From NCBI RefSeq assembly GCF_004010195.1, contig NC_057718.1, forward strand, positions 76,830,079-76,894,078: a DNA stretch of 64,000 nucleotides, read 5' to 3'. The notes beneath the pieces are model-generated. The model saw only the letters and a program-made list of their open reading frames with translations, was not told where the DNA came from and did no database searches. The stretch is from Chiloscyllium plagiosum (lineage: Eukaryota). Both the position numbers and the translations under genes were made by a program. How positions within the stretch are numbered: position 1 is the stretch's first letter; the number at the start of each line of letters is the position of its first letter. Shown here in pieces: positions 1 through 62,920 of the stretch.

Positions 1-420
1 TCCAGGGAACAGGAGAATCGACGTTTCGGGCATAAGCCCTTCTTCAGGAATGAGGAAGGTTTGTCCAGCAGGCTAAGATAAAAGGTAGGGGGGAGGGACT
101 TGGGGGAGGGGCGTCGGAAATGTGATAGGTGGAAAGAGGTCAAGGTGAGGGTGATAGGTCAGACTGGGGTGGGGGCGGAGAGGTCAGGAAGAAGATTGCA
201 GGTTAGGAAGACGGTGCTAAGTTCGATGGATTTGACTGAGACAAGGTGGGCGGAGAGGAATATCTTAGCCTGCTGGACAAACTTTCCTCATTCCTGAAGA
301 AGGGCTTATGCCCGAAACGTCGATTCTCTTGTTCCCTGGATGCTGCCTGACCTGCTGCGCTTTTCCAGCAACACATTTTCAGCTCTGATCTCCAGCATCT
401 GCAGACCTCACTTTCACCTC
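1..420. mobile_element. PLE family A 3' end in inverted arrangement (minus 1-260, plus 261-420), HHR motif on each strand
   Basis: Same sequence as the 3' ends of GIY-YIG-bearing copies at 28148 and 30838; ctgaaga-a-gggc-ttat-gccc-gaaacgtc at 294-321. Confidence 0.8.
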
Positions 421-539
421 AGTACCACTAGACCACATTGTCTTTTTCTAGTGTGAATACTGACAGAAAGTATTCATTTAGTGCTTCCCCTATCTCCTCT
501 GACTCCACACACAGGGAAGGAGGGAATTAGGGAAGGAAT

Positions 540-838
540 TCTAGGATTCTGACCCACTGACAGTGAAGGAACGATGATAGATTTCCAAGTCAGGATGGTG
601 AGTGTTTTGGAGGGGAACTTGAAGGTGGTGGTGTTCCCATATATCTGCTGCCCTTGTCCTTCTAAATAGAAGTGGTCCTGGGTTTGGAGAGTGCTGCCTC
701 AGGATCTTTTGTGAATTTCTGCAGTGCATCTTGTGGATAGTATACACTGCTGCTCCTGAGTGTCAGTGGTGGAGGGAGTGGATGCAGTGCCAATCAAGTG
801 GGCTGCTTTGTCCTGGATGATGTCAAGCTTCTTGAGTG
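540..838 (-). mobile_element. 3' fragment of an old non-LTR retroelement family (other copies about 22300-22850, 30000-30340, 44400-44960, 55940-57180)
   Basis: Recurrent motif ttcccatatatctgctgcccttgtccttcta; RT C-terminal-like peptide YTIHKMHCRNS. Confidence 0.55.
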
Positions 839-1855
839 TAATGTGACTGGTCAGACTACTTGACATTAAGCAAATACAGTTTATTTAAACACGATAGTTA
901 AAATACGAAGAAAGAACTTAGACTAACTTAACTGTATTGGAAAACTTAACAGAATAATAGACAGTAACTATACCTAACTAACTGTTCCAATATAGTAACA
1001 TCCTATAAACACACCCTTGGCAAATAGGCAAATTCAGAAAAATAGATTTCTGTCACAGAGGGATTCACAGTGGAACACCTTCTGCCATGTAGCTCTTTCT
1101 TTGACCAGCAGCCTCAAAACAAACTGCTTGCTCTGAACAGCCAGACTGCTAAAGTAAAGAAAAGCTGAGCTGGGAGTACTGGCTGCTCCCCTTTTATTGT
1201 AAAAGTGTTTGTTTAAAACTTAAAAATCTTTTTGCCTGAAGCCATAATCAAATTGGCCCTAAAACCCTTAAAAACTCGACACCCCAGAAGCTGTGTCTTT
1301 GTGACCACTCTGGGGGAGAAAAAAGCCAAGAACAAACTAATTTTGTTAAAGGTGCAGCATCGTCACGAACCCAGCAGCAGCGAGACACTCCAACATCTTG
1401 CTGTGGCTGAGAAAGGATAGCTTCTACGACTTCAAAACCCCAGCAGCTTCTGCCCTTTTGAGAATTCGGCACCAACAGCTTAAAGCTAAACTTTAAAAAA
1501 AACTAGAAATTCTGGTCTGTTAGAAGGCTGCTCTTATTGTTCCAACTTTTAAAACCAAGCCAAGGCCCCCCAAGCTGTTCACTTTATGGTTTTCACTAGG
1601 ACCTCTGCCTTAAAATTTCCTTTTAAAAGAAAATGGACAAAATAACTTCTCAAAGTCACAGCATTGTCATGCTAAACTTAAATTCCACATGCTGCCATGG
1701 TAGGATTTGACTTATATATCCAGTGTATTGTCCTGCGCCTCTGGATTATGCCACTGTTTCCAAAAAGTGCATTCACCATGCCTGTCAACATGATTTATGA
1801 TATTTGCAAATTATCAAGTCTTCAGTTTCTATTGGTTGCTTTGTTTTGTACTTAG

Positions 1856-1993
1856 TTCACTGGACTTGATGGGCGAGATAATCTTGCAAGGGAACTAGGA
1901 ATTCCTGAAGGAGCTGATTTGAAGGGAGTACCATTATTGTTGGAGGTGATAAGAAACGGTCAACAAAAAGAAAAAGGCACTTGCCCCTCTGAC
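1856..1993 (+). CDS. CEP43: CEP43/FGFR1OP internal exon (138 nt, phase 0-0): FTGLDGRDNLARELGIPEGADLKGVPLLLEVIRNGQQKEKGTCPSD
   Basis: Acceptor cttag, donor gtaagt; peptide matches recalled human FOP segment LQGLEGRENLARDLGI...GPLLLEVIRRCQQKEKG. Confidence 0.93.
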
Positions 1994-2545
1994 GTAAGTA
2001 CTTTGAATATTTATCTTCTATTATATAAGTAATATGCTTATTTCCTTAGCTGTTGCCTTTGGTGCTATTTTCAAAAAGTAATTTTGATTGATAGAGAATT
2101 GTTTATCAGTGACGAAGTGGATTTTACAGCCATAAATTGTGAGGGCCACTATCACGTGCACCCGCAACTGCCAGCCTTCAGTATGCATAGAATATGGCAT
2201 AATAATGTCAGGTTAGTGATCCAGTGTCACTACTTCAGGTTCAACTTTGAGGCAATGTAGGCATGAAAATCTGAAAGCTGCCCACAATTTTTTATTAAAT
2301 AAAACAAACAAATAAGCTATTGAACTTGCTGAGGAGCCAGTTGTACCTCTCTGCACTCCAATTAAGTCTGGGTCCTGCGGACAGACTACCTGTCACATTG
2401 CCAGCTGATGCTGCAAAGTGATTAATTGCCACTGGAGGTTCTCATCTTGCAGCCACCAATGTTAAACCAATGTTGTGCGAGGGAAGGATGGTCATCGTGT
2501 GGGAAGCACAACGAGCAAATCTGTGCAGTTTTGTTTATAGGCTTT

Positions 2546-2635
2546 CTGATGAAGAGTCACTAGACTCGAAATGTTATCTCTGTTTTCTTCCTACAGATGC
2601 TGTCAGACTTGCTGAGTTTCTCTGCAACATCTGTT
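2546..2635 (+). ncRNA. Minimal HHR motif of an older family (D) with its 3' tail
   Basis: ctgatga-a-GAGTC-acta-GACTC-gaaa-tgtt, then cagatgctgtcagacttgctgagtttctc; related tails at about 2950, 24345, 37560-37740, 42530-42660, 49140. Confidence 0.6.
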
Positions 2636-3084
2636 GTTCTAATAACAATGGCATGTTTCAATACTATAATATCAAGTGATCAATCTCTTGATTGCTCCAG
2701 GTAGTAGCAGGTAATGACATTTCCCTGCACTATTATCTCATGAGAGCAGTTGGACGATGTTGAATGCCTCATGCCGAGCCACTGTCTGAATGTAACCCCT
2801 GTATGTTCGTGTTAAGAGTTGGTTTTGCAACACACTGTCCATGGGTTTTGATTTTCTTTCAATATTTCAATTCTGCACTATTTCAGATTTATAGCATCTG
2901 CTTTAATAGGCCATGTGAAAGATCATTAATCTGAAATTTTTAATTCTTTTGCTTTCTCTGCAATTGCAGCCAGACTTGCTAAATGTTTCCAGTACTTTCT
3001 GTTTTTACGTCATTGGGTGTAGTTCTATTCCATTATGATAACCATTCATGTGATCTATCCTCAAGTGGCATGGTTTATTAGTGT

Positions 3085-3660
3085 TGCTCAATTACTTCAT
3101 TAGCAGGGACATAGAATATAGGAGCAAGGAAGTCTTGTTACAATTTTATAAACCATTGGTTAGGTCATAGATTGCATATATGTGTAATTTTAGTCACCAC
3201 ACTACTGGAAGGACGTGATTTACACCCTGTTCAGTGCAGAGAAAATTCAGTGGGATGTTGTCTGTTATGGAAAGTCTCAGTTATGAGGAGGCTGGATTTG
3301 TTTTCTTTGGAGCGGGGGAGGTATTAAATGATGTGTGCGAGTTTGAGAAGCATAGGGTCGATAATAATCTTTTCCCCATAGCAGATGTGTCTAAGACCAG
3401 AGTGCATAAATTTAAGGTGAAGAGTAAGTGGTTTAGAGGAGATCTGAGAAAGTTTTTTTTCACCCGCTAATAGTAGACAAATGGTACATGCTGCCTGAGA
3501 GGGTGGCAGAGGCAGATACACTTGCAACATTGAAGAAGTATCTGGATGAGCACTTAACCAGAGTATAGTAGGTGATGGATGAAGTGCAGATAAATGGGAT
3601 TGTTGTAATTTGGTCAGCGTAGACATGTTGGACCAATGGGCCTGTTTTTATGCTATATGA
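3085..3660 (+). mobile_element. CR1/HER1-like LINE 3' fragment, decayed
   Basis: ORF2 C-terminal peptide KTRVHKFKVKSKWFRGDLRKFFFTR; 3' end ...ggaccaatgggcctgttttt. Confidence 0.75.
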
Positions 3661-4421
3661 TCATGTAAGACCTCTTTTTTTAAAAGCTTTCAGACAGTCC
3701 AGAACTACGTATGTTGCGGCACTGTCATATAGTTTCTACCCCTTTCAAAGAAGTTTGTCAGTCAGATATAGCTGTTTTAACTTCTGTTAACTTATTTATA
3801 CCTGTACTTTTTCTCATACCTAACTTTCATTATTATACCCCAATTAATTTTGTACTCAAGAAATAAACAAGGACAAAATTCCTTTTAAAATTGATGTTAA
3901 AATTTTTTTGGTCCATTTCTTAGTTGTCAGAATTAGAAGTTGATAAGTACGGATTAGTAATGACAATGCTGGCTGATTTTTCAACTCTGCTCTTCTTTCC
4001 ATGATGCTGAGGCAAATTAGAGCTCATCATTTACTCCTGAGTTAGTCTACTATTTTATAATTTGGGAAAATCAGTAAACTTGTTGGAGGTATCTCTATTC
4101 TGAAGGCTCCCAGGATAACTGCTTGAATAAGTATTTAAATGTTAAAATAACATTCTGTTTACAAGCCAGAAATCATCACTACTGTTGTTTCTGTCTAACA
4201 TGATAAGGAAAAGTATACAGTTCTGTATAATTTTGAATGCTTAAGATATTACATTTTAAGATTCAATATTCAAAGCACAAATTGAAAAGCAATTTTAAAT
4301 GTAACACTTTTAAAAGTAATTTCTAAAAAGAAACTAAATGTATTTGCAGGACATTAACACAAAGTTGGTGGTGGGGAGTTCATAAGAATATCACAATAAT
4401 GATGTGCTCTTTTTATTGCAG

Positions 4422-4448
4422 GGTGACTCACTCAATTATGTTCCTAAG
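4422..4448 (+). CDS. CEP43: CEP43 27-nt micro-exon, GDSLNYVPK (phase 0-0)
   Basis: Pyrimidine tract plus ttgcag acceptor, aag|gtac donor, keeps frame between flanking exons. Confidence 0.65.
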
Positions 4449-5882
4449 GTACTAAATAATTTATGCCTCACTTTGAATGACTTGTGATAATTTATTGTTT
4501 CCTACAGGTTACTGGGATGTACATCCCAATGTGGTCTTCTTTCTATTCTCAACCTGAATAATTATTTTGAGATACAAATTTAGTAGCTTTTCAATAAGTG
4601 ATCCAGTGGGAGTTTTTTTTTTGTCATTTTACCAGGTCATTGAATTAGAGGCATATCTGAGATGCAAACAGTGAGGGGATGTGGATGAGGAAAATTAGAA
4701 AATGCATGACTGGGAATGCTAACATGTTCTAATTCCTCTTTTATATCCTGGGAGGTAGTTCAACATGCTAGTGACAAACCACCAGCAGCACTGGGAAACT
4801 AATTCAGATTTAAATGAAGCAATTAGCAGGTATTTTCTGAGAATTGTGAAATTTTACTGGTAGAAAGTGAGAGAGTGCATAGATCTTGACGTCACCAGCA
4901 AAGCAGAGGGATTCCTCACTGACTATTTTAAAAATGACATTCTTAACATTTTTGTAGGCTGCAGAGGGAAGTTATTCTCGTCACTGTAGAAGAGTTGAAA
5001 GCTGCAGATGTAGTACAACTCCAGTAAACCACACCTGTGTCATTACAAGATGAATACAGGCTCCTCAAGATCTGCCTTGAGCTCAATGCTGAATATTTTT
5101 AGTAACTTCTTTATTCTTTTAATCCGGCTTTCTCACCCATTGTCTCTGGATACCGGTGGAATTAAATAACCAAGATGGAACTGAAAGCAGGATTGGATTT
5201 GGTGACTGCTGTTGGGGTGCAGAATGGGTGAGTGAGGAATGACAGAGTGAGGGGGATGTGGGGAACGTAAGTAGTGAGCAAAGCTTGGAGTGACTTAGAG
5301 TTACAAGCACAGTGTTGAAATTTGTGAATGAGACAGAACTTAAGGGAGATAGTAATAGATTTCAATGGGGCAACAAATGGGCTGGTGGCATGGATGGGCA
5401 CGTGACTATTTCCAGTGACTAAAGTTGATGACCATTTGTGATATGTGGAAATACTTTATTTTAACAAGAGCATTTTGGAATTGAATCAGTCTATCTGATA
5501 CGTGAATATAGATTCACTAATAGCCTTCAAAGGGATTTTGGATAGCTACTTAATGGAGAAAACGTTTGCAGAAATATGAAAATGATTTGAATGGTTCATC
5601 TGTTTATTTGAAGGAGCCGGTGCAAGCTGGATGGGCTGAATGGCTTCTTGTATGTCTTGTTTATGCACATTATGAGAGCCTACCATAGCTGCATGAACTA
5701 ATGTTACTCCAGTATCACAATTTCTCAGAAACTTGAAATTGTTGACATTGTTTTAGTGTGCAACAAAACGTAACAGAGGGATGGTAAATATTTTGCTGCC
5801 TAATTTAAATTTGAAACTGTGTAGCAATTCAAATATTTTTCCTCATTTTGGTTAAAAGCTGATTGTGACTTTGGTTTTCCAG

Positions 5883-5939
5883 GAGTTGTCAGCAAAACAT
5901 ATAGCAGAAGCCAAGAAAAAGTTTGAATTTTATGATAAA
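5883..5939 (+). CDS. CEP43: CEP43 exon, ELSAKHIAEAKKKFEFYDK (entering helix of EF-hand 1)
   Basis: ttttccag acceptor, gtgagt donor, 57 nt phase 0-0; joins the next exon to make a canonical EF loop. Confidence 0.88.
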
Positions 5940-6494
5940 GTGAGTTTTAACTTTTCCTGCCAGTTTAAATTAGATTGTAAATATGTGCTGCGTTTTGTGT
6001 ATATTGCAATTTCATACGTATTTTGATGCCCTTTTGTTATGCATTGATTTGTGAGGTTGAAGTTTTACCACTATTGCCATAAAAATCTATTTTTATGAAT
6101 GGTGTAAATTTACACATTTTAATTACACAAACAATCAAATATAAAAATATAGTACAACATGAAAATAAAAGAATCTATTTTTTAATCACTGCTTGTGATT
6201 GCTCGCCAGGTGAGCATGTCAGAAAATCTCAGGCCCATAACAAATGATTTTATGAACTTGAACTTTAATACACAGACTCAATGCAAGAAATCATGAGGAG
6301 TGATATTTTCTATGATTTCAGGAGAATCCTTTTGAGTTCTGTTTTTTCAATATTCAATTAAATACTAGATTTAGCTCAGTTAGTGTACAGGCAAGGAATA
6401 TGAATCTTTTGGGAGTGTTCTCTGTTCATCAAAAATTTGGAAATGTGCGTTTGATCTAATGTCTTAAAAAGTCCATGGCTTGCCTTGATTTTAG

Positions 6495-6565
6495 GACAAA
6501 AATGGTGAGATAAGCAAAGAAGAACTGAAGGAACTATTCATAGACCTCTTTCCTCACTTTCACAA
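6495..6565 (+). CDS. CEP43: CEP43 exon, DKNGEISKEELKELFIDLFPHFH(K)
   Basis: ttttag acceptor, gtaagt donor, 71 nt phase 0-2; completes loop DKDKNGEISKEE. Confidence 0.9.
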
Positions 6566-6666
6566 GTAAGTTAGTTTTCACTGTTTACTTTGGAATTGCA
6601 CTTTGTTTCAAACCTTGATTTTTGTTGCATTTTAACCATTGTAACCGTAATTTGTTTCACTGATAG

Positions 6667-6716
6667 GAATATGCTGGACAGATATGTAAATGACGAATTT
6701 AAAGCTTTTAATAATG
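6667..6716 (+). CDS. CEP43: CEP43 exon, (K)NMLDRYVNDEFKAFNN
   Basis: gatag acceptor, gtaagt donor, 50 nt phase 2-1, frame-compatible with both neighbours. Confidence 0.87.
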
Positions 6717-7552
6717 GTAAGTATATTTGACAATAAGCTTTTAAAATACATTTAAGGCTGCTGAAGTAATTGGAATTTTGTAATCTGATCCCAGTAAAAT
6801 TAATGTTTAATCTTTCTAGTGTGTTTATTATATTACTAATATTGTTAGATGTACCTCTGAAGATTCATTCTACTTTGACATTCATACTTCAACAAAAAGG
6901 GAACTTTCCTGTCTTGGTAATCATTTGATAAATCCATAACGTGCAGTTTCATAAAGAATGAGAGAAATTAGGAGTAGAATATTTGGCGGCTCTAACTGCT
7001 GGCCCATTCTGTATTACGCCTGAGTATCTCTGTTAACTCTACTTTCTTCCTATATTCTTTTGACTTCCAATGGCGCTTTCAAAAGATCTATTGATCGCAG
7101 TCTTAAACATGCTCGTTAATGAGACCATCGCCCCAAGTTCAATGGGAAACATTTTCAGCATTTATTTTGTCAAACCCTGTGTGACCTTTTGTTTTTCATT
7201 GAAGTAACCCTTCATTTTTGTAAAATTCTGGAGAATATAGGGCAATTCTACTTAACCTTCATTCATGGGACAGCCTTCTCATATAAGCAGTAAATCTAGG
7301 AAACCATTGTTCTGTCTTTTTCAAAGGAAGAATACTACTTTAGGTAAAAATTTTGCGCAATACTCTTGGTCTCTCAAAATCCCAATATAATTGCAGAAAG
7401 ATTTCTTTGTTCCTCCAACAATAACTTACGTAATGATGCTATATTAAAAAAAATGCTTCACCGACATAATAAATCCTTAAACCTCATGGGAAAAGTTAAT
7501 GTAATGTTTACCTTGCAGAGTTGATGCTAGACAGGTGTGCTAACTTTCTGTG

Positions 7553-7775
7553 GAGAAAGTGAGGTCTGCAGATGCTGGAGATCAAAGTTGAAACTTTATT
7601 GCTGGAACAGCACAGCAGGTCAGGCAGCATCCAGGGAACAGGAGATTCGATGTTTCGGGCACAGGCCCTTCTTCAGGAATCATTCCTGAAGAAGGGCCTG
7701 TGCCCGAAACGTCGAATCTCCTGTTCCCTGGATGCTGCCTGACCTGCTGTGCTGTTCCAGCAATAAAGTTTCAAC
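7553..7775. mobile_element. 223-bp non-coding palindromic PLE derivative with back-to-back HHR motifs
   Basis: Arms 7587-7680 and 7682-7775; 15-bp TSD tgctaactttctgtg at 7538-7552 and 7776-7790. Confidence 0.88.
7682..7717 (+). ncRNA. Minimal type I hammerhead ribozyme motif
   Basis: attc-CTGAAGA-a-GGGC-ctgt-GCCC-GAAA-cg-TC-gaat: stem I attc/gaat, 4-bp stem II, palindromic ACGT in place of stem III. Confidence 0.8.
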
Positions 7776-7939
7776 TGCTAACTTTCTGTGATTAGTATAA
7801 AAGGACACCAAAATCCCTCTTATCATATACATTTAGTGGCATACCTGCCTCTTAACCAGAAGCTTTCTGTTAGAGTCCCACTCCAGGACTTGACACCAAG
7901 GAAGGGGCTTTGCTATAAATTTCTAATATAGGTCAGTAA

Positions 7940-8166
7940 TTGAAAGTGGAAAACTCGAGAACAAGTGTTGCTTGGGAAGTTTCTGATACTGAGTCTAATT
8001 CGGGAGCATATTTGGAGGTCACTTCCTCTGCTGCTCCCGCTCTTTCTGTGAAGGAGAGAGAAAACAAAACACCGATGCCCGGTGTTTTGAAAGTGGAAAA
8101 CTCGAGAACAAGTGTTGCTTGGGAAGTTTCTGATACTGAGTCTAATTCGGGAGCATATTTGGAGGT
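7940..8166. repeat. Two identical 80-bp direct repeats with a 67-bp spacer (period 147)
   Basis: 7940-8019 equals 8087-8166 base for base. Confidence 0.92.
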
Positions 8167-8629
8167 TACCAGGTAGTGCAAAACTGCCTCTCAGAAGTTT
8201 AGACTTCTTGGATAATTATTATATGTTTGTGTGGTTTAGGACTTGCTGGGATTCTGATTCACAACAACAAAAGTTTTGATGTTCATCATTGTTGACATTG
8301 AAAGATCTGGCTGATTCTGAAGAGTTTGTAAGAATGACAAGATGGTTGCTCTCTGTAGGGAATGGGTTATGTGATAATACTTAGGTATGTAAATACATCT
8401 TGCTATGATCAAGAAGATTGGGGGATGTTTGGTCCAGTTTAAAAGAAAAATTGGGGTATATATTGAAGGAGTCTTGAGTCCCATGTTCAGTAGAACAAAT
8501 TGATCTTTATTTGAAGCTCCTTTACCACAAGTTGGGAAAGGTCAGAGACTGCTCTGAGTTTGGCTTTCACATAGGGCCCAGTTGCCCTCTTAATTACAGT
8601 TCAGGTCACAGGTCAGTGACAGTCTACCT

Positions 8630-8720
8630 TTCCTGAAGAAGGGCTTATGCCCGAAACATCGATTCACCTGCTCCTTGGATGCTGCCTACCTGCTGCGCTT
8701 TTCCAGCAACACATTTTTTC
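8630..8720 (+). mobile_element. Short PLE family A insert (HHR plus downstream segment)
   Basis: ctgaagaagggcttatgcccgaaacatcg; flanking duplication gtctacctttcc at 8622-8633 and 8723-8734. Confidence 0.75.
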
Positions 8721-9362
8721 ATGTCTACCTTTCCCAGTAAAGTACAGAATATTTGTATGTACTGCATTACAATAGTTACATGCAACATTGACATCAGTGC
8801 TTGTGATGTCCTGTGAACTAATCCTGTGAATTCACGTTCAATGATGGACAATTTCATGATCCATCTTGGGTCATCCCAGCATCTTGCGATGTTTGCCAGA
8901 CTCCCTATTACCTGTCCTTGGGCTCCTAAGATTATCGACCACATTCCAACATCGATTGTTATGTCCCTTCCTGGACATTTGCCAGCCACATCATGTATTT
9001 CGTTATTACTAATGAATTTTCAAATTCGGTCATGCAATTCATATCCCTTGCTGATCTTAGTACTGAAGATTAAAAATGATGTTAATTTCTACCAATTATT
9101 ATAATATTTATAATATCAGCTCTAATATAAAGTTATTAATAAAATTATACATAATTAAACCTAATACTATGATTCTGTGACAGAACTAACAATTTCGTTA
9201 ACAACTTCCCCTCCTAACTGACTTGCAAAGCAGGGGTTGTTTATTCACTCAAGGTCATAGTGACCCTATTTCAAAAATTTGTTTCTGCCCCCCTTGCCAT
9301 GTTATTTGTCTCTTAGTTCTATATAGAATCCCTGCAGATTGGAAGCAGGCCATTCAACCCAT

Positions 9363-9452
9363 GGATTAGTGGTGCTGGAAGAGCACAGCAGTTCAGGCAG
9401 CATCCAAGGAGCAGCGAAATCGACGTTTCGGGCAAAAGCCCTTCATCAGGAT
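9363..9452 (-). mobile_element. Short PLE family A insert with HHR
   Basis: Reverse complement reads ctgatgaagggcttttgcccgaaacgtcga; flanked by cattca(a/g)cccatgg duplication. Confidence 0.72.
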
Positions 9453-9469
9453 TTTACCTCATTCAGCCC

Positions 9470-9800
9470 ATGGAGTCCACACCAACCCTCTGAAGAGCAT
9501 CCCACCCAGACCTACAACAGCCCCCCCCCCCCTCACTATCATATTCCTATAAACCTTCATTTCCCATGGCTAATCCACTTAGCCTGCACATCCCTAGACA
9601 CTAAGTGGCAATTTAGCATTGCCAATCCACCTAACCTGCACATCTTTGGACTGTGGAAGGAAACTGGAGTACTTGGAAGAAACCCATGCAAACACTGGGA
9701 GGGCATGCAAACCTCACACAGACAGTTGCCCAAGAGTCGAATCGAACCAGGGTCCCTGGCTCCATGATGCAGCAGTGCTAACCACTGAGCCACTGTGTCC
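9470..9800 (-). mobile_element. tRNA-derived V-SINE (HE1-like)
   Basis: Reverse complement has A/B-box head gtggctcagtggttagcactgctgc and a V-domain. Confidence 0.8.
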
Positions 9801-10439
9801 TAATCTTGCTGATGAGCGAAAACAATTTCTTCAAGAGTGTTTGTTGAAATTGGTATCTTCATCCAAGGCTAACTGCCTTCAGAAATTTAGTTCCCCAATA
9901 TCTAATAAATTTAAACTTCTATCCTTGTACAAATGTGTCAATTCTAATATGTAGTTTTGTTTTAAAAGCCTCATCTCAGGTGGATCAAGCTTCCCTTTTC
10001 TACTTCATACAAAAATCAGAAATCTCAAATCAGATGGTTTTCACGTGAGCTGCCTTAACAGAGCCTTACTGTTTACATTCTAGTCCCATCTTACTAAGAC
10101 TCCAGCATTTTGTTTGTCTATGAAGGCCATGATTTGAGCAATATGAAATGCTACATCAGCTATTTATTTTTGTCTGTGACAGTTAAAAAGAAAACTTCTA
10201 ATAGCCATTTTGTCATATTCAGCCAGGGGCAATTACAACAGTGTAGATAAGGAAATCAGCAGGATAACTAACCTCAGCAAGCAAGAAATGGCAATGAAGA
10301 AAGTTATTATAGTGCTTTGTCATTCACTTGATACAATATTAGATTTGTCAGCAGGTCGCATATCAAAAATATTTTAAAATTACTATTTATCCAGTTAAGA
10401 TTTAAAGTGATTTGCTTTATTTCTTGTTTGTTGAATTAG

Positions 10440-10501
10440 TGGTTGATTTTGATGAGTTTCTGGGAATGTACAAAAGATTGTTCGTCCAGTGCAGAAGCGT
10501 G
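10440..10501 (+). CDS. CEP43: CEP43 exon, (V)VDFDEFLGMYKRLFVQCRSV
   Basis: attag acceptor, gtaaga donor, 62 nt phase 1-0; VDFDEF is a typical EF-hand loop end. Confidence 0.87.
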
Positions 10502-10924
10502 GTAAGACAAATTTTTGTAATTAAAAATAATAATGATGTATTTGTTTGAGAAAAAAACTCCCTTTTCCATCATGCATACTGAGATTTGAAAAAAGAAACA
10601 TGCAGTCAGAAATCTTCTAAACTCTGAATTCTGGAATTCTATAACTAGTTGTTCTGATTTCTAAAAACAGTCCACTGTCCTTTAGAGACTTCAAAAATTC
10701 ATGCTTGGACTAAAAAAAATGCCAATGAACCTAAACAATCTTCTAAGCAAAAATTTACATTTGAGATTCTGAAGTAAACAGATATGTGCATTCATTTGAA
10801 GAGTACATTCAAATTTTTCCTAACCCCCCATAATGAAGTAAAATTGTAGAAGAAGCAGTCAAAAGATTCTATTAATGCTGTGTTTTACTTTGGTCACTTT
10901 AGGCATTATCTCAGCAGACGGAAA

Positions 10925-11665: not shown

Positions 11666-11689
11666 CTTCAGTTACAGGCTTGAGGACCA

Positions 11690-14965: not shown

Positions 14966-14974
14966 ATCTCTCTG

Positions 14975-20940: not shown

Positions 20941-20944
20941 AGAC

Positions 20945-51858: not shown

Positions 51859-52429
51859 GTGAGATCACCAGCATGATTCAATGGTTTAGCTAATACGGTG
51901 ATAGGTGGAAATATTTTGCAAATCTTCAGGGGATTTCTGGTGGAAAAAGCAGGCCACTTATTAAGTAGAACTTGAAACCTTGGCTGTTTAAAATTTCAGT
52001 AGCAAACAGGAAAATATTTTTCAGCCTTCTTCAAATATGATTATCAGAAGAATTAAAATTTTTACATTTATATATTGAAGGCTAAATACCATAAAAATTG
52101 TTTTTCAGTAAAACCCATCTGACCCCATTGATTTGATTTTGCAATCTCATTGTGCACCTTTTCCTGTTATGTGTATAGAAAGCCTTGGTTCCTGTAGTGG
52201 TTTTGTTTTACTGTCAGCAAGAAAATGTATGCTTACAATCAATAAATATCTGAAAGTGTAAATATAACTGCAATGCATTTTATATTCTATGAAAAACTGA
52301 TTCAAACAAAACTTCGGCTGGAAAAGTACTGGAGTTTATATTTAACATTTTCGAATTTCATTCTGTTCTTGAATTAACAACATCATTATATTACATTACC
52401 TGTTCCCTACTGATGATTTTGATTTATTG

Positions 52430-54330
52430 TCCCAAGTATCTGAGTACAGTGAAAAGCTTTGTTTACAAGCAGTACAAGCAGATCATTGTGAGCAAGGACG
52501 CACTGATCAGAGGGTTAAAAAAAACTGGGCGGAGGCATATAGGTTACATTGCACAGGGCCTGCCCTAGGGAAGACCAACATTAGGAAGGTTGGCATTATT
52601 TGAAGTCAGTTCATTGATCAGTCTAATAACGACAGGGAAGAAGTTGTTCCTGAACCTGCTGGTGCATTTGTTTAAGTTTCTGTATCTTCTGCCTTATGGA
52701 AGAAGTTGTAGGAGAGCATTGTCAGGGTGGGGTGGGTCTTTGATGTTGGCAGCCTTTCTGCGGCAATAGGCCATGTAAATGGAGTCAATGGATGGCTTCC
52801 GTGATGACCTGGGCTGTGCACACAATCTTCTGTCGTTTCTTACAATCCTGGTCAGAGGAGTTGCCATACCAGGCAGTTATGCACCTGGACATTATGCTTT
52901 CGATGATGCATCTGGAAAAGTTGGGGAGGGTCCTTATGGACTTGCCAAATTTCATGAGCCAACTGAGGAAAAAGAGGCATTGTGCTGCCATGATAGTTGT
53001 ATCTATGTGGGAAGTCCATGACAGGTTGTCAGTTATCCTAGGAACTTGACTCCTAGGAACTTGACGCTCCCAACTCTCTCAAACTCAGCTTTCTTGATGT
53101 AGATGGGGGCAGGTTCTCCCCTTTTCTTTCTGATGCCAATGATCAGTTCTTTAGTTTTGCTGACATTGAGGGAGAGAGATGGTTATCATCGTACCACATC
53201 ACCAAGCCCTCTATCTCCTTTCTGTATTCTGCCTCGTTATTGTTTGATATCTATCCTACCATGGTGCTGTCATCAGCAAACTTGTAGTTGGCTTTTGTTT
53301 GGAAGTTGGCAACATAGTCATGGGTGTACAGGGAATATAGAAGGGGGCTGAGAACATATTCCTCAGGGGCTCCAGTGTTGAGTGTTATTATGGGGGATGT
53401 GCCTTTCACATCCATCAAAGTTTCACCCGCACTTCCACACGTCATTTACTGTATCTGTTGCTCCCAATGCGGTCTCTTCTACATTGGGGAGATAGGACGC
53501 CTACTCGCAGAGCGCTTCAGAGAACATCTCTGGGACACCCGCACCAATCAACCCCACCACCCCGTGGCCAAATACTTCAACTCCCTCTCCCACTCTGCCA
53601 AAGACATGCAGATTCTGGGCATCCTCCATTGCCACTCCCTTACCACCTGACACCTGGAGGAAAACTGTCTCATCTTCTGTCTTGGGACCCTCCACCCTCA
53701 GGGTATCAATGTGGAATTCACCAGTTTCCTCATTTTCCCTCCCCCACCTTACCCCAGTTCCAACTTACCAGCTCAGCACCGCCCTCATGACCTGTCCCAT
53801 CCATCTTTCTTCCCACCTATCCCTTCCACCCTCCCCTCTGACCTATCTCCTTTACCCCCACTTCCATCCACCTATCGCATTCTCTGCTTCCTCCCACCCC
53901 AGCCCTACCTCTTCCCATTTATCTCTCCACCCCAAGGCTCCCAGCCTCATTCCTGGTGAAGGGCATTTGCCCGAAAAGTTGGTTTTCCTGCTCCTCAGAT
54001 GCTGCCTGATCTGCTGTGCTTTTCCAGCACCACACTCTCTTGACTCTAATCTCCAGCATCTGTAGTATTCACTCTTGCCATGGAGCATGTGCAGTTGTCT
54101 GTCTTCATTGATTGTGGTGTGTGGGTCAAGAAACTGAAGATCCAATTGCAGAGGATGGAGTTGAGATCTAGGTCTCGGAGTTTTGAGATCAGTCTGGAGG
54201 GGATAATAATAGTGTTGACAGCGGAGCTGTAATTGATGAGCAGGAATCTGATGTAGGTATCCTCATTGTCCAGATTTTCCAGGGATGAGTGCAGGGCCAG
54301 GGAAATGGTGCCCACTGTGACTTTGTAGAA
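52430..54330 (-). mobile_element. Rex1/Babar-type LINE 3' part, interrupted by a PLE
   Basis: LINYSSAVNTII, LNTGAPEEYVLSPLLYSLYTHD, YKFADDS, IESIMSRCITAWYGN. Confidence 0.85.
53408..54078 (+). mobile_element. PLE family A fragment with degenerate HHR
   Basis: VIYCICCSQCGLFYIGEIGR; attcctggtgaagggcatttgcccgaaaag. Confidence 0.82.
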
Positions 54331-54899
54331 GAATCAAATATAAGAGAGAAATACAGAGCTCATGTTATTTGCGAGTTCTTCCATCAAGGATGTAGATTAC
54401 AATGATCTGGCCACTTCACATGAAAGCTGACCAACAGAATAAAACCTTGAAATCTAATTTGATATATTCCAAGTGATTATAATATAAAAAGGTTACAAGA
54501 CTTTCCTGCTGTACATATTTATAAGTCATGTTTTATGTTGGAGCACCCCAGCCATTTGATTAGATGACTTTTTAAGTTTCTTGATGATCAGCTGTTGATC
54601 ATTGCTTTGTATAGTTTCATTGATTTGACTCAAAAATTCTGCTTTCACTATGTCTCAAGAAACTTCTCTCAACATTCCATTCACGAAAGGAATCCTGTCA
54701 AAAGCAGCACCTGATTTTCTCTTTTTTTTTCTGCCTCTAACTTCAGTGATCAAAATCACTGATCCCATTTTTTTTTTATTCTCTTGCAAATTCTACAGCT
54801 ATCTAATTAAGTTTCTTTCTCATCATCCTAAATTTTAATTCATAAGTTGAAGGACAAGTTCATAAACATTCACCGGCTTTATATTTAAGTTTCATAGTC

Positions 54900-55480
54900 T
54901 GCAGATTGTTTTTCTGATAAACTGGAATACATATAACTTTACCTGTCAAGATATGTAACATTAAAGCCCAGACATCTCTTGACCACTTCATCTTCCCAGT
55001 TACCTTTTTAAATATCCCCTGTACATGTGACTGGCAGATTAGATTCTAACTAAATCAAATCCCTCATTGGAATTTAAATCGTTCTCTGAATTTATGACCT
55101 TTTTTTTCTTATATTGCAACCTTTTATCTTGTCAAGTCTCATCTCATTTCCTTCTCTCCTTGCTATTCAGGTTTTTAAATTCCATTTTCATGTTCATATC
55201 ATTCTCCTGTTTTATTGCACTTTTCTTTTCATTTTCATCTGTTTTCTTTTTCTTTCAATTCAAATCTTTTAATATCACGTTTTGGCTCTCTAAGTCAAAT
55301 GTTTTCATTCCTAGCTGACTTAGTTCATTTTGGCGGTGGTGCATTAAGTTCAGGGTTCCCTCCTTGCAATTCTGAATGCTGGAAGATGACTTTAAATATC
55401 TTATTTATGTATGATTCTGCTTTTATTCTTACTTTTAGTTTATCTGTCAACTCTCTCGATTAAGGTTAAACTGTTGTCAT
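54900..55480 (-). mobile_element. Possible decayed Gypsy gag (coiled-coil) remnant
   Basis: E/K-rich minus-strand stretch followed by FKKVTGKMKWSRDVWAL-like peptide; many stops. Confidence 0.3.
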
Positions 55481-56104
55481 GCCTTCTACTCCCTGAACAG
55501 TCCCAGCAACATTCAAAACTACTTTGAAAGTCCAATCTGTAATCTGCTTCACCAGCATTTTCCTGTTTTATGTTCAGTACTTCCATGTATTTGTTCCTGT
55601 AAATGAGAAACAAATCCATCTTAAATTTAGTGAACTCCAATCCTGTTTTATGATCCCAGCCAATGGCAATGCTAGACAAGTCAGATCTTAGATTAAAAGC
55701 TAACTTGATATATCATAAATTTGCTTTTTGCTGTGGTTACTCAGGTGCTTATATTCTTCTGCAAAAATCACCTGTTAATTACACAGAATAAGAGCTAACA
55801 AAGTTTTTGTATATGAGAAGGCTGTTTAGAAAGTTTTGCATAAACAGCAGAATAAGGTTGCACCGTTTCCCAGCAAAATCCAGTACAGATACTGAAATCA
55901 CGGAAAAACATTACTCTTTATCTAAACAATTTTTAAATCATTCATGGGATGTGAGCGTCACTAATGTCCTGGGAGAAATGGTGGTAAGCTGCCTTCTTGA
56001 ATCATTGCCATCCTTGGACTTGTAAGGAAAGAAATTTCAGGATTTTCACCTAGCAACAGTGCAGGAACATTAATATAGTTCCAAGTCTGAATGGTATGTT
56101 GCTT

Positions 56105-56304
56105 CTATGAATTTTCTAAACTGGCAACCTCTTTCACCTAGAAAGAACAAAGACAGCAGGTGCATGAGAACACCACCACTTCCTACAAGTACCCCTACAA
56201 ATACCCCTACTTCCTAGGGGTACTTGTAGGAAGTGGTGTTCTCATGCACCTGCTGTCTTTGTTCTTTCTAGGTGAAAGAGGTTGCCAGTTTAGAAAATTC
56301 ATAG
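56105..56304. repeat. Long inverted repeat (about 88-bp arms, about 21-bp spacer) inside an old LINE fragment
   Basis: 56105-56192 is the reverse complement of 56214-56304 apart from a 3-bp indel. Confidence 0.9.
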
Positions 56305-57639
56305 GAGCCTTGGGAGTCACTACAGTGCATTTTGTAGATGGTATACTGCTACCATTCTGCATCAGTGGTGAAGGGTGTCAATATTGAAGGTGGTGGATGA
56401 GAATCCAGTCAAGTGGGCTGCTTTGTTCTGGATGATGTCAAGCTTCTTGAGTGCTGTTAAAGCTGTAATCCAAGGGGAGAGCATTCCGTTACACTTATGA
56501 CATATGCCTGGGCATTGGGAGATAGAAAATCAGCAATCTGTTGAAGAGGTCATCAACTCTGACTTGCTCTTGTAGCCACAGTATTTATTTGAATGATCCA
56601 GTCCACTCCACTCTGATGTGAGGGATCCAGCAATGATTATGCCATTGAACCTTCAGGAGCGGTGGTTAAATTTAGTCTTGTTGGAGATGCTCATTGCTTG
56701 ACATCGTGAGGTGTGAATGTTACTTGTCACTTATCAGCCCAAGGCTAGGTATTATCCAGGTCTTGCTCAGTGTGTACATGGACTGAGATCTTTAGTATCT
56801 GAGGTGTTGCAAATGGTGCTGTACGTTATGCGATCATTAGAGAACTTCCCCACTTCTGACCCTATGAGATGGAGGAAAGATTATTGATGAAGCAGCTCAA
56901 AATGGTTAGTGCCTTTGACATCACCCTAAGGAATTCCTGAGAATACTGACTGACAACAGCCTTCCTCTATGACTCCAACTAGCAGAGAATCTTCCCACCA
57001 ATTCCCATTGACTCCAGTTTGACTTGGGCTCTTTTAACTTTTATGTTTTAAGAGTAGACTGATAGGGCAGTGATTGGCTGGGTTAGATTTGTCCTTTTTA
57101 TATACAAGACATGCCTGGGCAGTTTTCCACATGGTCAGAAATATGTTGGTGTTGTAGTTGTACCAATACAGCTTAGCTAGGAGCATATAAGATGAAAGTG
57201 AGTACTGCAGATGCTGGAGATCAGAGTCAAGATTAGAGTGGTGCTGGAAAAGCACAGCAGGTCAGGCAGCATCCGAGGAGCAGGACAGATGGGACAGGTC
57301 ATTAGGACGGTGTTGAGCTGGAAGGTTGGAACTGGGGTAAGGTGGGGCGAGGGGAAATGAGAGCACTGGTGAAACTTCCTTCAACTGTTTCTTGATATCA
57401 TGTGGAGTTGAATTGAATTAGTAGAAGAGTGGACTCTCTGATGTTGGGAATCACTGGCGGAGCCCAAGATGCGCATCCACTCAGCATCTTTGGCTAAAGA
57501 TGGATATAAATGTTTTAGCCTTGCCTTTGCACAGATGTACTGGACTCCCCCTTTGTTGAGTATGGGGATGTTTGTGGACATTCCACCTCTTGTCAAATTT
57601 CCACCATCATGACTGGACAGTTATAGAGAGTTCACCACT

Positions 57640-60450
57640 CTCTATAACCATCTGATTTTGAATGGTACAGTTGCCATACCAGGTAGTGATACATCTAGAC
57701 AGAATGCTCTTGATGGACACACCTATAGAAGTTGGCAAGGGTTTTTGCTGTCATGCCAAATTTCCTCAGCTGCCTGAGGAAGAAGAGACACTGTTGGGCC
57801 TTTGTAACCAGTGTGTCCACATGAAGAATCCAAGAAAACTTGTTGTGGATGACTACTCCCAGGAGCTTGACACTCTCCACTCGTTCTGCCTCTGTGCTGT
57901 TGATGTGTACGGGGACATGAGTAACATTCCACCGAAAGCCAATAATGAGTTCCTTGGCTTTGCTGGCATTGAGAGCTAGGTTGTTCTCAGTGCACCATTT
58001 TTCCAGGTCTTCCACCTCCCATTTGTAATCTATTTTGTTGCCATCTGAGATTCGATCAACTGTGATGGTGCCATCAGCGAACTTGTAGATGGCATTAGTC
58101 TGGTATTTGGTGATGCAGTCATGGGTATACAGTGAGTACAGTAGGGGACTGAGTATACACCCCTGCGGGGCTCCAGTGTTGAGTGTTAGTGAGGATGAAA
58201 TATTGTCCCCAATCTTCATTGATTTTGGCCTGTGGGTCAGGAAACTGAGGATCCAGTTGCAGAGAGTGGGGCTTAGTCTGAGATCACTAAATTTAGTAAT
58301 CCGTCTCAAGGGGATAATAGTGTTGAAGGCTGAACTGCAATCAATGAGTAGGATTCTTATGTAGCTGTTCTTGGTGTCAAGGTGTTCTAGAAAGGAGTGA
58401 AGGGCAAGTGACGTGCCATCTGATGTGGATCTGTTGGTCCGTGTCGTGGAAATTAAATCGACTTGACTCAATAATTAGCAAGAGCAAAGAGAGGGTCTTT
58501 ATTAAAAATCCTGCAGGATTTTGACTCATTATGCTAAGTCAGATGCCTCAATGCAAAGAGTACCGAAACATTATACAGACGCCTGCCTTAAAGCCTTCCT
58601 TATCACACTCTCGAGGGCAAAGACTGGCGAAACTCAAGTTGTTATCCTCTCATCCCCTGGTCCTAGACATAACAGTTCTTCAGCTTTCGCTGAATTCGAC
58701 TATCGCAAGGTCGAGTTGAATGTTTACAGAATTCAGACAGAGATAAGCTAACTGCAAACCTTCATCAAAGCATCGTTTACAAAGCTCAGTACTGCATTGA
58801 ATTAAAGAAAAACATTCTGTTTAAATTTCACAGTGAATGGATAATTAATTTAATGGGTCAAGAATAGTGGGGAGGCTAGAGTTGATTAATGTCATCACCT
58901 GCTTTTCAAAGTACTTCATGACCACCGAAATTAGGTGGTAGTCATTGAGACATGCTGTATGAGCCTTCTTAGGCACAGGAATGATGTTGGCCTTCTTGAA
59001 ACAGTCAGGGACAGTGGCCTGCTGCAGGGAGAGGTTGAAGAAGACCTCTGCCAGTTGTTCTGCGCATGCTCTGAGTGCAAAGCCTGGTACTCCGTCTGGT
59101 CCCATCGCTTTTCTTGGGTTCACACGAAGAAAAACTGATCTGACCTCTGATGCAGTGACTGTTGGGATAGATTCGTCAGGACTTGTCGGAATGGGTGTTT
59201 CCTCGCCGGCGGAATTCTGCTCAAAGCGAGCATAGAAGGCATTGAAACGATCTGGGAGGGGTGTGTCATCATCTGCTATCTTGCACTGTCTCTTTTTAGA
59301 ACCTGTGATGTCATTCAGTCCTTGCCATAGTCGCCAGGTGTCTGGGTCTCTAGTTTGGATCGGTATTGGTCCTTGGCTGTCTTAATGGCTCTGCGAAGGT
59401 CATACTTGGATTCCTTATATCTGAGTGGGTCTGCTGATCTGAAGGCCTCACGCCTGGTTTTTAGAAGGTTCTGTCCATCCCGATTCATCCAGGATATCCT
59501 GTTGGGGAACACCCGGATTGATGTCCTCGGTATGCAGTCCTCCACATACTTGCCACCACCGTCACAGACTTTATCAACATTCCTGTCCAAGGTACCTGTG
59601 GACTGTTTGAACATGGCCCAGACAGCCAATTCCAGACAGCACCGGAGTTAATCCTCTGCCTCCTCCGACCAGCACTGGACCTGTATCCATAGGGGGTCTT
59701 CTGCTTGAGCTTTTGCGTGTAAGCCCGGAGAAGAAACACAGCATTGTGGTCGGAGTTCCTGAAGTGAGGGTGGGATTGGAGCGGTAGGCATCTTTCACTG
59801 TGGTGTTGCATTGGTCTAAAATGTTCAGGCCCCTGGTGGGGCAGGTAATGTTCTGGTGGTACTTGGGCAACACCTTCCTTAGATTGGCTTGATTGAAATT
59901 GCCAGTTACAATAAACAGGGCTTCGGGGCATTCCGTCTCCAGGGTGTTAATGGTGGAGAACACACATCCAGAGCTTCCTCAACCTTTGCTTTTGGCGGTA
60001 TGTACACAGCAGTTAGTATAGCAGCAGTAAATTCTGTGTTAAATAGAAGGGGCAGGATTTGATGGTGAGGAATTCAAGGTTTGGGGAGCAATGGCTGCCC
60101 AGGGTTGCAATGTCCGTGCACCACAAGTTGTTAATTAAAAAGCAAATCCCTCCACCCTTTGTCTTACCCGAGGGCACTGTACGTTCCCTATGATGGATAG
60201 AAAAACCATCAGCCTGAAGTGCACAGTCAGGAATGGATGAGTTGAACCAGGTTTCTGTGAAGCAGTGTGTGGCAGTCCCACAGTTCATGATGGAAGCTGA
60301 GTCGTGATCGGAGTTCATCCATCTTGTTCTCCAGAGATTGTATGTTTGCTAGGAATAAGCTAGGAAGGAGGGTCTTGAAACCACATAGTCTCAGTCTTAC
60401 TAACAGGCTGGCACACTTACCCCACTTCCTCACAGGTTTCTTACATTTGA
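57640..60450 (-). mobile_element. Rex1/Babar-type LINE (endonuclease + RT), frameshifted
   Basis: LFLANIQSLENKMDEL, CFTETWF, KGGGICF, GNFNQANL, KAMGPDGVPG, IDCSSAFNTIIP, TGAPQGCILSPLLYSLYTHDC. Confidence 0.9.
58442..58832 (-). mobile_element. Solo-LTR-like insertion in the Rex1 RT
   Basis: TG...CA ends with imperfect inverted termini; minus-strand AATAAA at 58498-58503; no clear TSD. Confidence 0.45.
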
Positions 60451-61094
60451 GTGGTCTGGTGGAGTGGATTGTGACTGCTTCTAGTTAAGTGATCCTTCCT
60501 AGGCCCCTGTGGAGCAGATAGGTTGCAGTTACTCTTGGTGGGTAATGGTGAAATGCCTATGAAAAGTGTTTACTGCTTTTTAACACCCTCATTGACTGCA
60601 CATTTTGACTCATTAATATGCAATTTCCTATCGTACCATCTGCCATCATGGAATTAGATGCCAAGAATTCCTGACATGAAAGTCAGAGCGGGTATGTGAC
60701 ATCTCTAATTCACCACTTGCTCTTTCAAACTTCCATCTTAGACATCTACCGTCAGCATTTCAGGATGTATCATATATGTTGGCCACACACGGCCCATGTC
60801 CATAGTCCTTGGCATCGGACACTTACCAGCCTCTCTGATTTATCCTGGCATAGCTCAGATTCTTTTGCACCTTACCTCCGCATTTTAAAGTTGCAACTCT
60901 GGGCATACCAGCAATTGCAAGTCTCAGTACTTCTATCTTCCTTTGCTGTTTAGTGCAGACACAAAGTGAGGAAATTTGTTGTAGTTTTCAGCAGTCCTCC
61001 ATCCTCAGTCATGTCAAGAGAGACATCCATTAGTCAAGTGATTTCCAACAAGTTAAGTACAGCCTCTGATTCCTGATTTAATATAGTTAGCCAG

Positions 61095-61154
61095 CTTGGC
61101 GAACAGAACCACAACAACGAGCACCCGAGCTACAAATCTTCGCACAAACTTTGA
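61095..61154 (+). mobile_element. 60-bp PLE family B extreme 3' end insertion
   Basis: Same tail as 32847-32900; TSD atagttagccag at 61083-61094 and 61155-61166. Confidence 0.85.
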
Positions 61155-62559
61155 ATAGTTAGCCAGTTGGAGTGTTCAGGATCATGATCCTAACCTTGTA
61201 AACCTTGAGAAGCCTAATGTGAAGCAGTGCATCACACCTGGGCTCTTTTCTCCTGGAATGAGAGAGAGAGGGAGGGAGAGAGTGAAAGTGAAGAAAGTGG
61301 CTGGACCAGCTGTTAGCACTGGTGAATGAAAGCATAGAAATATAGAAAATAGGAGCAGGAACAGACCATTCAGACCTTCAGGGATGATCATCCAACTTCA
61401 TACCCTGTTCCACTTTTTCACTATACCCTTTGATTCTTTTAACATAAGAATCACATCTAACTCCTTGAAAGCATCCAATGTTTTGGTCTCAACTACTTCC
61501 TGTGTTAGAGAATACCACAAGCTCACCACTGTCTGTGTGAAGAAATTTCTCCTCATCTCAGTCCTGAATGACCTACCCTATATCCTTACACTATAACCTG
61601 TGGCTCTGGATTCCAGAGTCATCAGAAACATCTTCCTGCATTTACCATGTCAGTCCTATCCGTAGTTTACAGGTTTGAGATGAGATTGACCTCTCATTGT
61701 TCAAAATTCCAGTGAATACAGTCCAAACAGATCCAGTCTGTCTACCTATGCAGTGAGTTTTCCTGACTGAGTGAGTAGGCAGTACAGAGGCAATGCAAGT
61801 TTATTCATGTTGGGGTATGTGACAATGAGAGAATGAGAATGTGTTGAATGCAATGATGAGAATAGTAGAACATGAGCCTTGGTGTGAGATGGGTGCACCA
61901 GCACAAGTGGAGTGATATGAGGTAACAGAGAGAAGATGGTGGCTGTTACCATGGCAGAGTGGGGGCAATCGTTGACCACCACCTTGCACTACTTGGTTTA
62001 TGTTAAATGGCTGAGACCTCAGTGACCCAGTTGCCAAGCTTGGAACAGACTGGTGGGGTTTGGTGGTGTAGTCTATTGGTCGTGGACAAGAGGACATCTT
62101 TCCTCTACATCACACCATCGACAAGAACCCCCAAATCCCTAATAACAAAGGCTCCAATTTATCCTTCTGTATTACATCCAACTTAAATTTCAGGAACCAT
62201 GCAGGACAGCTGTGGTCTGTGTGCTTGACTGAGTACATGACTAGCTTAGAAAGGAGGGCATCAGCTTAATTCCATGATATTCCAGCAGTGCCAAGTTTTT
62301 CCAGGTACGGCAAATGTGACAATGAGTCTATTCAGATATCACTAAATGAAAGGGGTACCATATTTGTTGGGGAGGGTGGAATAGACAGATGGTTTGGGAC
62401 GATACGGGAAGAAATCTCACTAGACCTTGCAGAGGGAAACCTGCTGCGAAACTTAGAAAACTGACACATGGCCAGAATATGACAGGATTCAGCTCCCTGA
62501 CTCTGCTGAACTGATTTGGAGATGCCAGTGTTGGACTGGGTGTACAAAGTTAGAAATCA

Positions 62560-62920
62560 TCGAGGAGAAAGTGAGGTCTGCAGACGCTGGAGATCAAAGC
62601 TGAAACTTTATTGCTGGAACAGCACAGCAGGTCAGGCAGCATCTAGGGAACAGAAGATTCGACGTTTCGGGCACATGCCCTTCTTCAGGAATGAGCAGAG
62701 AGTGTTCAGCAGGAGAAGCTTCTTCAAGGAAGGCATCCTTGTAAGAGGATTCGCAGTAGGTTGAAATCTTCGAGGAGAAAGTGAGGTCTGCAGACGCTGG
62801 AGATCAAAGCTGAAACTTTATTGCTGGAACAGCAATAAGGGCATGTGCCCGAAACGTCGAATCTTCTGTTCCCTAGATGCTGCCTGACCTGCTGTGCTGT
62901 TCCAGCAATAAAGTTTCAGC
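62560..62920. mobile_element. Non-coding HHR element: 1.3 tandem copies of a 210-bp unit (minus) plus an inverted arm, inserted in a family C element
   Basis: 62561-62624 repeated at 62771-62834; minus HHR 62657-62692; TSD aaagttagaaatca at 62546-62559 and 62921-62934. Confidence 0.85.

Follow-up and report, generated by a model that had tools for sequence, protein, structure and literature searches.

Minimal hammerhead motifs in introns of the bamboo shark CEP43 gene: likely idle tail ends of Penelope-like retrotransposons

We analysed a window of 64,000 nucleotides of the Chiloscyllium plagiosum genome (contig NC_057718.1, positions 76,830,079 to 76,894,078), for which an original prediction made from the sequence had placed about 20 minimal hammerhead ribozyme motifs inside the CEP43 transcription unit. 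The best protein matches to the window were CEP43/FGFR1OP of bamboo sharks (genus Chiloscyllium), and 11 exons were mapped on the plus strand with per-exon identities of 88-100% to shark CEP43 proteins (tblastn). The GT..AG joints between the exons were supported in RNA data. First and last exons were found in the flanking stretches, with the start codon ~39 kb upstream of the window and the stop ~8 kb downstream. The window (1..64000, plus strand) is the middle of the CEP43 (FGFR1OP) gene, as predicted, and because it lies wholly inside the gene all motifs are intronic.

All 22 sites of the original prediction (13 plus, 9 minus) were present, one of them starting at 14851 instead of 14850. 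The intact-core pattern, CTGANGAN{12,20}GAAASSTH, matched 14 times in the window (7 plus, 7 minus) against 0.13 expected, and none of 100 shuffles reached 14. Both core boxes and the palindrome were kept at 7 of the 13 plus-strand sites (294, 7686, 28598, 35720, 36995, 46120, and 48974), with one stem II mismatch beside the intact core of 36995. The other six had lost the palindrome (2546, 8633, 21725, and 31343) or G12 (14851 and 23385). On the minus strand the core was kept at 7 of 9 sites, and those at 7676 and 43917 were decayed. Several motifs had been expected to be decayed, and these eight were, mainly because a CpG had been lost within the ACGU palindrome or at G12. The figure of about 20 held for the listed sites and missed further worn or truncated ends: family profiles gave 35 matches in the window plus an edge copy at 47, of which 26 spanned the core (16 sense, 10 antisense).

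The motifs sorted into families A, B, and C and older relatives, with family-specific stems I and II and a core common to all. The core boxes CUGANGA and GAAA with U16.1-H17 were present in the 14 matches. Stem II showed G10.1-C11.1 and one unpaired base after A9, and its sequence differed between families with pairing maintained: GGGC/GCCC in A, GUC/GAC in B, GGAG/CUCC in C, and GAGUC/GACUC at 2546. There was no helix III, and positions 15.1-16.1 formed a palindrome (ACGU in A and B, AGCU in C) that was intact together with the core in 14 of the 22 listed sites. Stem I had 4 bp in subfamily A1, 2+1 bp with a U-U mismatch at 294 and 46120, and 3 bp in B and C; it was lost in the minus-strand cores 12510-12543 and 43212-43240. 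The predicted cuts after 7713, 28625, and 49001 were consistent with the core numbering. An Rfam scan of the window returned no hammerhead family among 16 matches at E up to 10. Its top matches, to microRNA families, were rejected as fold-back hairpins scoring under the gathering scores.

The same features are described for the minimal hammerheads of metazoan Penelope-like elements (PLEs) by Cervera and De la Pena (2014; PMC4209133): a type I core lacking helix III, a single unpaired base ahead of stem II, the G10.1-C11.1 pair, and a palindrome at 15.1-16.1 (ACGU or AGCU). There too, a genome holds several families, most copies stand alone as leftovers of truncated elements, and some lie in opposite-strand pairs within 100-700 bp. 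The shark motifs differ from that account in their host, in the short stem II of family A (4 bp), and in number: ~200,000 intact cores, where the counts for coelacanth and Xenopus, made by a different search method, were ~4,000 and ~9,000.

Remnants of a GIY-YIG endonuclease were found by tblastn just upstream of six sense motifs (14851, 21725, 28598, 31343, 35720, and 53952). Pfam PF01541 matched above the cut-off at 30549-31184 and below it at 14282-14809 and 53318-53647. The family A remnant matched a shark protein at 76% identity, and this protein carried reverse transcriptase (RT) motifs, a CX2-5CxxC linker, and a GIY-YIG endonuclease; its match to RVT_1 was weak (E 0.008). The RT part of a PLE was not found within the window. 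The CX2-5CxxC linker lay upstream of GIY-YIG in protein P0035 and also in a genomic copy (locus L130). A linker of this kind between RT and endonuclease is a Neptune feature that Nematis and Naiad share (Craig et al., 2021; PMC8557442). Family B frames (34918-35733; locus L131) entered the endonuclease without the Cys linker. Because the linker is present in A and missing in B, and with this as the sole feature used, family A classifies as Neptune-type and family B as Penelope/Poseidon-type. The core and stem features and the linked endonuclease remnants identify the motifs at the sequence level as tail-end minimal hammerheads, in the pseudo-long terminal repeat (pLTR), of at least three PLE families, a motif class described in 2014, and bear out the prediction that they are PLE minimal type I hammerheads (Table 1).

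Animal non-LTR retrozymes likewise carry type I hammerheads derived from PLE ends, and the vertebrate ones are described as acting mainly as dimers (PMC7229834; bioRxiv 10.64898/2026.07.22.740005). Unlike the shark insertions, they form tandem arrays of 150-450 bp units, and a retrozyme array was rejected for the window, where none of the seven tandem repeats bore a hammerhead.

Table 1. Hammerhead-bearing insertions and CEP43 exons in the window (plus is sense to CEP43)
Feature	Position	Strand	Core and other details
Family A (putatively Neptune-type) inverted pair	1..420		Antisense arm, intact core 20-47 (-); sense arm, intact core 294-321 (+); left end meets assembly gap
Older related pLTR end	2544..2633	+	Core 2546, palindrome lost
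Single A1 fold-back insertion	7552..7776		Antisense arm 7552-7680 (core 7676 decayed); sense arm 7682-7776 (core 7686-7713 intact); 95-bp arms, 99% complementary; target-site duplication 14-15 bp
Family A stub	8628..8717	+	Core 8633, palindrome lost (CG to CA)
Family A stub	9366..9455	- (antisense to CEP43)	Intact core 9422-9449
Older family B (putatively Poseidon-type) fragment, endonuclease remnant	12497..12913	-	Core 12510-12543, stem I lost
Older family B fragment, GIY-YIG remnant	14282..14929	+	Core 14851, G12 lost
Family B fragment, endonuclease remnant	20579..20938	-	Intact core 20624-20657
Family A 3' fragment, endonuclease remnant	21053..21805	+	Core 21725 decayed
Family C fold-back pair	23320..23472		Sense core 23385, G12 lost
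Subfamily A1 3' fragment, endonuclease end and pLTR	28151..28677	+	Intact core 28598-28625; no antisense partner within 1.5 kb
Family A 3' fragment with GIY-YIG (PF01541 above cut-off)	30849..31455	+	Core 31343, palindrome lost
Family B fragment	32430..32847	-	Intact core 32483-32516; fold-back hairpin 32707-32822
Family B 3' fragment, 272-aa open frame with endonuclease end	34918..35804	+	Intact core 35720-35753; monomer predicted to misfold over core
Family C stub	36985..37080	+	Core 36995-37023, AGCU palindrome, stem II mismatch
Family A fold-back insertion	40169..40367		Both cores truncated; not in the original prediction
Family C fold-back pair	43152..43335		Antisense core 43212-43240; sense arm truncated
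Family A stub	43834..43925	-	Core 43917 decayed
Family A stub	46070..46212	+	Intact core 46120-46147, stem I U-U mismatch; no antisense partner within 1.5 kb
Single A1 insertion	48698..49063		Antisense arm 48698-48818, gap, extended tail, sense arm with intact core 48974-49001; 15-bp target-site duplication
Older family A 3' fragment, endonuclease remnant	53438..54073	+	Core near 53952 decayed; not in the original prediction
A1 insertion	62562..62920		Minus partial tandem (intact core 62661-62688, extended tail) and truncated sense arm 62834-62920; 15-bp target-site duplication
CEP43 exons in window, first six (tblastn)	1857-1995, 4422-4448, 5883-5939, 6495-6565, 6667-6715, 10439-10504 (approx.)	+	
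CEP43 exons in window, last five (tblastn)	23834-23920, 45903-45959, 47345-47557, 51138-51210, 51772-51859 (approx.)	+	

Copies were commonly paired head to head, with 87 such pairs against 13 tail to tail within 1.5 kb; 162 of 303 profile matches were involved, part of them by chance. Genome-wide, 11,541 family A head-to-head junctions turned within 25 nt of the core. Since duplications of ~15 bp flank 7552-7776, 48698-49063, and 62562-62920, each of these units is one insertion. The other three of the six units tested gave a 9-bp candidate, an 8-bp candidate, and a blank. The turns of the fold-backs clustered at the ribozyme 5' edge and not at the cut site (e.g. 7552-7776, 40169-40367, 23320-23472, and 43152-43335).

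Among family A copies with a tail, the 5' end lay within 10 nt of the first core base in 76 of 141, a share to which divergence from the four references may contribute. None of 95 copies started at the cut site and one started a base past it. Because the 5' ends cluster at the ribozyme edge and none falls at the cut site, the likely template of the insertions was uncut RNA. A small peak of 5' ends at +29 to +31 (10/141) was rejected on direct inspection, with 0/95 at +28, and is probably an artefact of a decayed reference copy. In the A1 copies at 48890-48968 and 62719-62771 the tail ran to a second, longer end ~55 nt beyond the usual one and was joined to a further partial-tandem copy.

Much of this anatomy is known from endonuclease-bearing PLEs, descriptions of which include head-to-head inversion of a 5'-truncated copy, in some cases an extended tail, partial tandem copies, and a target-site duplication enclosing the entire unit (Arkhipova et al., 2013, PMC3846280; Craig et al., 2021). 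The shark insertions differ from those descriptions in being often only 150-370 bp, in their ~15-bp duplications, and in the clustering of the turn at the ribozyme 5' edge. They also resemble the Anolis Poseidon element PAc (Frangieh et al., 2024; PMC11167929), in which the pLTR ends in a hammerhead followed by a tail and insertion proceeds from uncut RNA (in vitro in Anolis); the two A1 insertion end points ~55 nt apart resemble its two internal reverse-transcription starts. Unlike PAc, shark family A would be Neptune-type. Target-primed reverse transcription would start ~110 nt past the cut site and make each stub; uncut RNA would be copied through the ribozyme, usually ending at its 5' edge, and copying would often turn back to give the inverted second arm.

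The exact 33-mer at 7686 occurred in 12,020 copies genome-wide, the family A core in 79,576, and the general core pattern in 224,917, against 6,007 matches for a reversed control. The general pattern ignores stem II; because a check of stem and palindrome confirmed 49 of the 54 matches seen in the sampled genes, a fair estimate from these sequence counts is ~200,000 intact minimal hammerhead cores in the genome. The largest published count that we found is 126,247 canonical motifs in axolotl, obtained by different methods (PMC7229834). We found no publication joining the hammerhead ribozyme with a shark genome; the supplement of PMC4209133 may name a shark, and that of bioRxiv 10.64898/2026.07.22.740005 lists one cartilaginous fish and may contain counts. 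Against the literature found, the very high copy number and the fold-backs at the ribozyme 5' edge are apparently new. With ~200,000 cores, most long pre-mRNAs would contain several.

We compared strands in 14 other genes (952 kb without gaps) found via two Pfam families (spectrin and fibronectin-III matches); the sample omits titin, which is exon-dense, and three other gene spans found. One non-family sequence and gapped seeds were removed in building the profiles. The sense/antisense bias in introns, to which the original prediction had pointed as a check, was flat: 25 intact cores were sense and 29 antisense (p 0.68), as were 90 and 101 of the core-spanning profile matches (p 0.47, interval 0.40-0.54) and 39 and 48 of the solo core-spanning matches. 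With CEP43 included, the share still intact was 34/110 for sense and 39/116 for antisense copies (p 0.67). In 94 family A copies, non-CpG core bases differed by 3.8% and tail bases by 4.8% (p 0.26), and CpG bases by 17%. There was no sign of sense-copy purging or of core conservation, within a test that a weak bias would escape, and such motifs are evidently tolerated in introns in sense orientation.

A domesticated intronic hammerhead is not supported, as the core decays like the tail in the 94 family A copies. The amniote intronic hammerheads, e.g. that of RECK, are likewise type I and on the sense strand of an intron (PMC6155905). They are described as canonical, single-copy, and conserved across species, in contrast to the young multi-copy stubs in neutral decay of the shark.

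According to the original prediction, the identical sense copies at 7682, 28594, and 48970 could base-pair with one another in cis at their ACGU, and the introns would be cut co-transcriptionally. The copies were identical over 84-94 nt, intact, and sense to CEP43, and on paper an A1-A1 dimer forms 4+4+4 base pairs. They lie in three different introns ~20 kb apart. Two of them, 7686 and 48974, are sense arms of fold-back insertions and would be trapped in predicted duplexes of 85-95 bp with the arm made earlier, which leaves 28598 as the single free copy. Transcription of a head-to-head unit always reaches the antisense arm first, and the sense motif is predicted to pair fully with it. An antisense arm of 98-100% lay upstream of three of the seven intact sense copies, with predicted duplexes of -195 (294), -206 (7686), and -183 (48974) kcal/mol and a stem II probability of 0.00.

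A lone minimal motif lacks helix III and would depend on a second one; to form the dimer, the two must pair through the 4-bp palindrome and exchange both stem I strands. The best homodimer, A1 x A1, had 12 bp in three short helices and lay +2.3 kcal/mol above two monomers, compared with +4.9 kcal/mol for A1 x 46120 and +19.8 kcal/mol for A1 x family B. The other free sense copies were handicapped: 35720 belongs to family B and is predicted to misfold, 36995 belongs to family C with another palindrome, and 46120 has a weak stem I. Fold z-scores of the four free sense motifs were unremarkable (-0.75 to 0.69). Even adjacent dimers of minimal motifs cleave poorly, and the monomer stays uncleaved (PMC4209133). 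With the introns also joined out in RNA contigs, we consider cutting by cis-paired copies extremely unlikely; of this proposal the identity of the copies stands, and the pairing and co-transcriptional cutting are not supported.

Runs X1 and X3-X6 were taken as RNA solely from their exon-exon GT..AG joints. The 6716-10438 intron, which holds 7686 and 8633, was joined out at a depth of 39.4 in X1 and 358.6 in X3 (neighbouring joints 39.4 and 307-322); in X7, examined to ~2 in 100, no read spanned it, and X8 contributed no reads. The intron holding 46120 was joined out in X4, X5, and X6 and in two raw reads of X7, the intron holding 48974 in X4 and via a longer skip in X5 and X6, and the 22-kb intron with 28598, 35720, and 36995 in X6. 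The contigs show only that mature mRNA forms across the tested motif-bearing introns. No pile-up of read ends was seen in 785 and 426 raw reads, most of them from other copies and from a fragmented poly(A) library, which makes this a weak test.

The insertions could act on CEP43 RNA without cutting it. The predicted 80-95 bp duplexes could lead to editing or altered splicing as fold-back dsRNA, and subfamily A1 has an AATAAA ~49 nt past the cut site (7762 and 49050) that could cause intronic polyadenylation. In 22 raw reads of another A1 copy a poly(T) stretch followed the signal, and some A1 copy may therefore supply a poly(A) site. The depth of an intronic X4 contig was similar across 48974 (16-36 before, 25-55 after; a poor measure of level), and no editing or early ending of CEP43 RNA was seen among repeat reads that are not uniquely placeable. 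Such effects would be compatible with idle ribozymes; as the explanation of the motifs we judge them very unlikely.

We conclude that the motifs are, with high probability, tail-end hammerheads of at least three PLE families carried as idle passengers, without any cutting of CEP43 pre-mRNA that matters. The observations behind this are the motifs themselves, their link to the endonuclease, the target-site duplications, the genome-wide counts, the lack of strand bias, and the neutral decay. In the pre-mRNA an antisense arm made first would pair with the sense motif, and the handful of free copies are widely spaced and for the most part belong to different families; published work suggests that the element's own protein would be needed as well.

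Several points weigh against idle passengers. A full-length element was not recovered, as the four long-frame loci fetched ran through assembly gaps. The window held 14 intact cores against 4.0 expected per 64 kb, and profile matches including worn copies reached 334 per Mb in CEP43 against 40-333 in the 14 other genes. The window had been selected for motif richness, and 13 overlapping 64-kb stretches from other genes had 1 to 9 intact cores each; CEP43 is motif-rich, yet near the top of the range in other genes. Four intact sense copies (28598, 35720, 36995, and 46120) had no antisense partner nearby, and nearest-neighbour energies omit Mg2+ and the tertiary contacts of the core, so that dimer stability is understated. 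The strand test covered 15 genes, in which a bias smaller than ~60:40 is undetectable. The RNA evidence was mostly assembled contigs, which are blind to RNA ends and levels, and a cut intron can still be spliced. Tandem retrozymes, a different class, are reported to be depleted from Xenopus introns (bioRxiv 10.64898/2026.07.22.740005).

A rival reading is cutting in trans under special conditions. Where the Penelope protein or plentiful Penelope RNA occurs, as in the germ line or early embryo, any transcript carrying a motif of the same family could serve as partner for a free sense copy (e.g. 28598 or 46120), which would then be cut at low frequency. The Anolis hammerhead is reported to cleave only with the element's protein, after whose addition it is cut, and to give no RNA-seq ends at the site (Frangieh et al., 2024). 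In the shark, ~80,000 family A cores retain an intact ACGU, the RNA contains reads from many copies, and 28598 keeps its 4-bp stem I, with stems I and II predicted to fold as a monomer. The flat strand bias, the lack of any faster loss of sense cores, the absence of insertions starting at the cut site (0/95), and, as a weak test, the missing read-end pile-up argue against it, and we regard it as unlikely. Somewhat less probable still is a broader form, in which Penelope protein in germ line or embryo chaperones trans dimers of intronic sense copies and element RNA and cuts host pre-mRNAs transcriptome-wide, with fold-back arms shielding many sites. If this protein-assisted cutting is real, an active retroelement would impose a cost across the host's transcriptome.

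As idle tail ends, the motifs add a shark example with very high copy number to the class known since 2014. Their ends and turns, clustered at the ribozyme 5' edge with none at the cut site, form a large natural data set on PLE copying and the role of the hammerhead.

Further features of the host gene and of the window were observed. The shark CEP43 has EF-hand exons at 5883-10504 (Pfam PF13499 and PF00036) that are missing from some isoforms. The exons at 51138-51210 and 51772-51859 are used alternatively, with X5 and X6 contigs joining 47557 directly to an exon beyond the window (L011:3563). A predicted CEP43 isoform of a related shark (protein P0006) has an insert matching the antisense reading of the family A tail (31417-31452 and 62775-62810), possibly an exonisation or an annotation artefact. 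Fragments of LINE-type retroelements lie on the minus strand at 16125-19444, 28684-29802, and 57662-60348, with an RVT_1 match at 57698-58474. A local duplication of ~115 nt was seen at 7913-8215, where a loose contig end at 8081 leads into a splice-donor-like stretch. At 56155-56254 there is a near-perfect 100-nt hairpin with a microRNA-like score below the cut-off.

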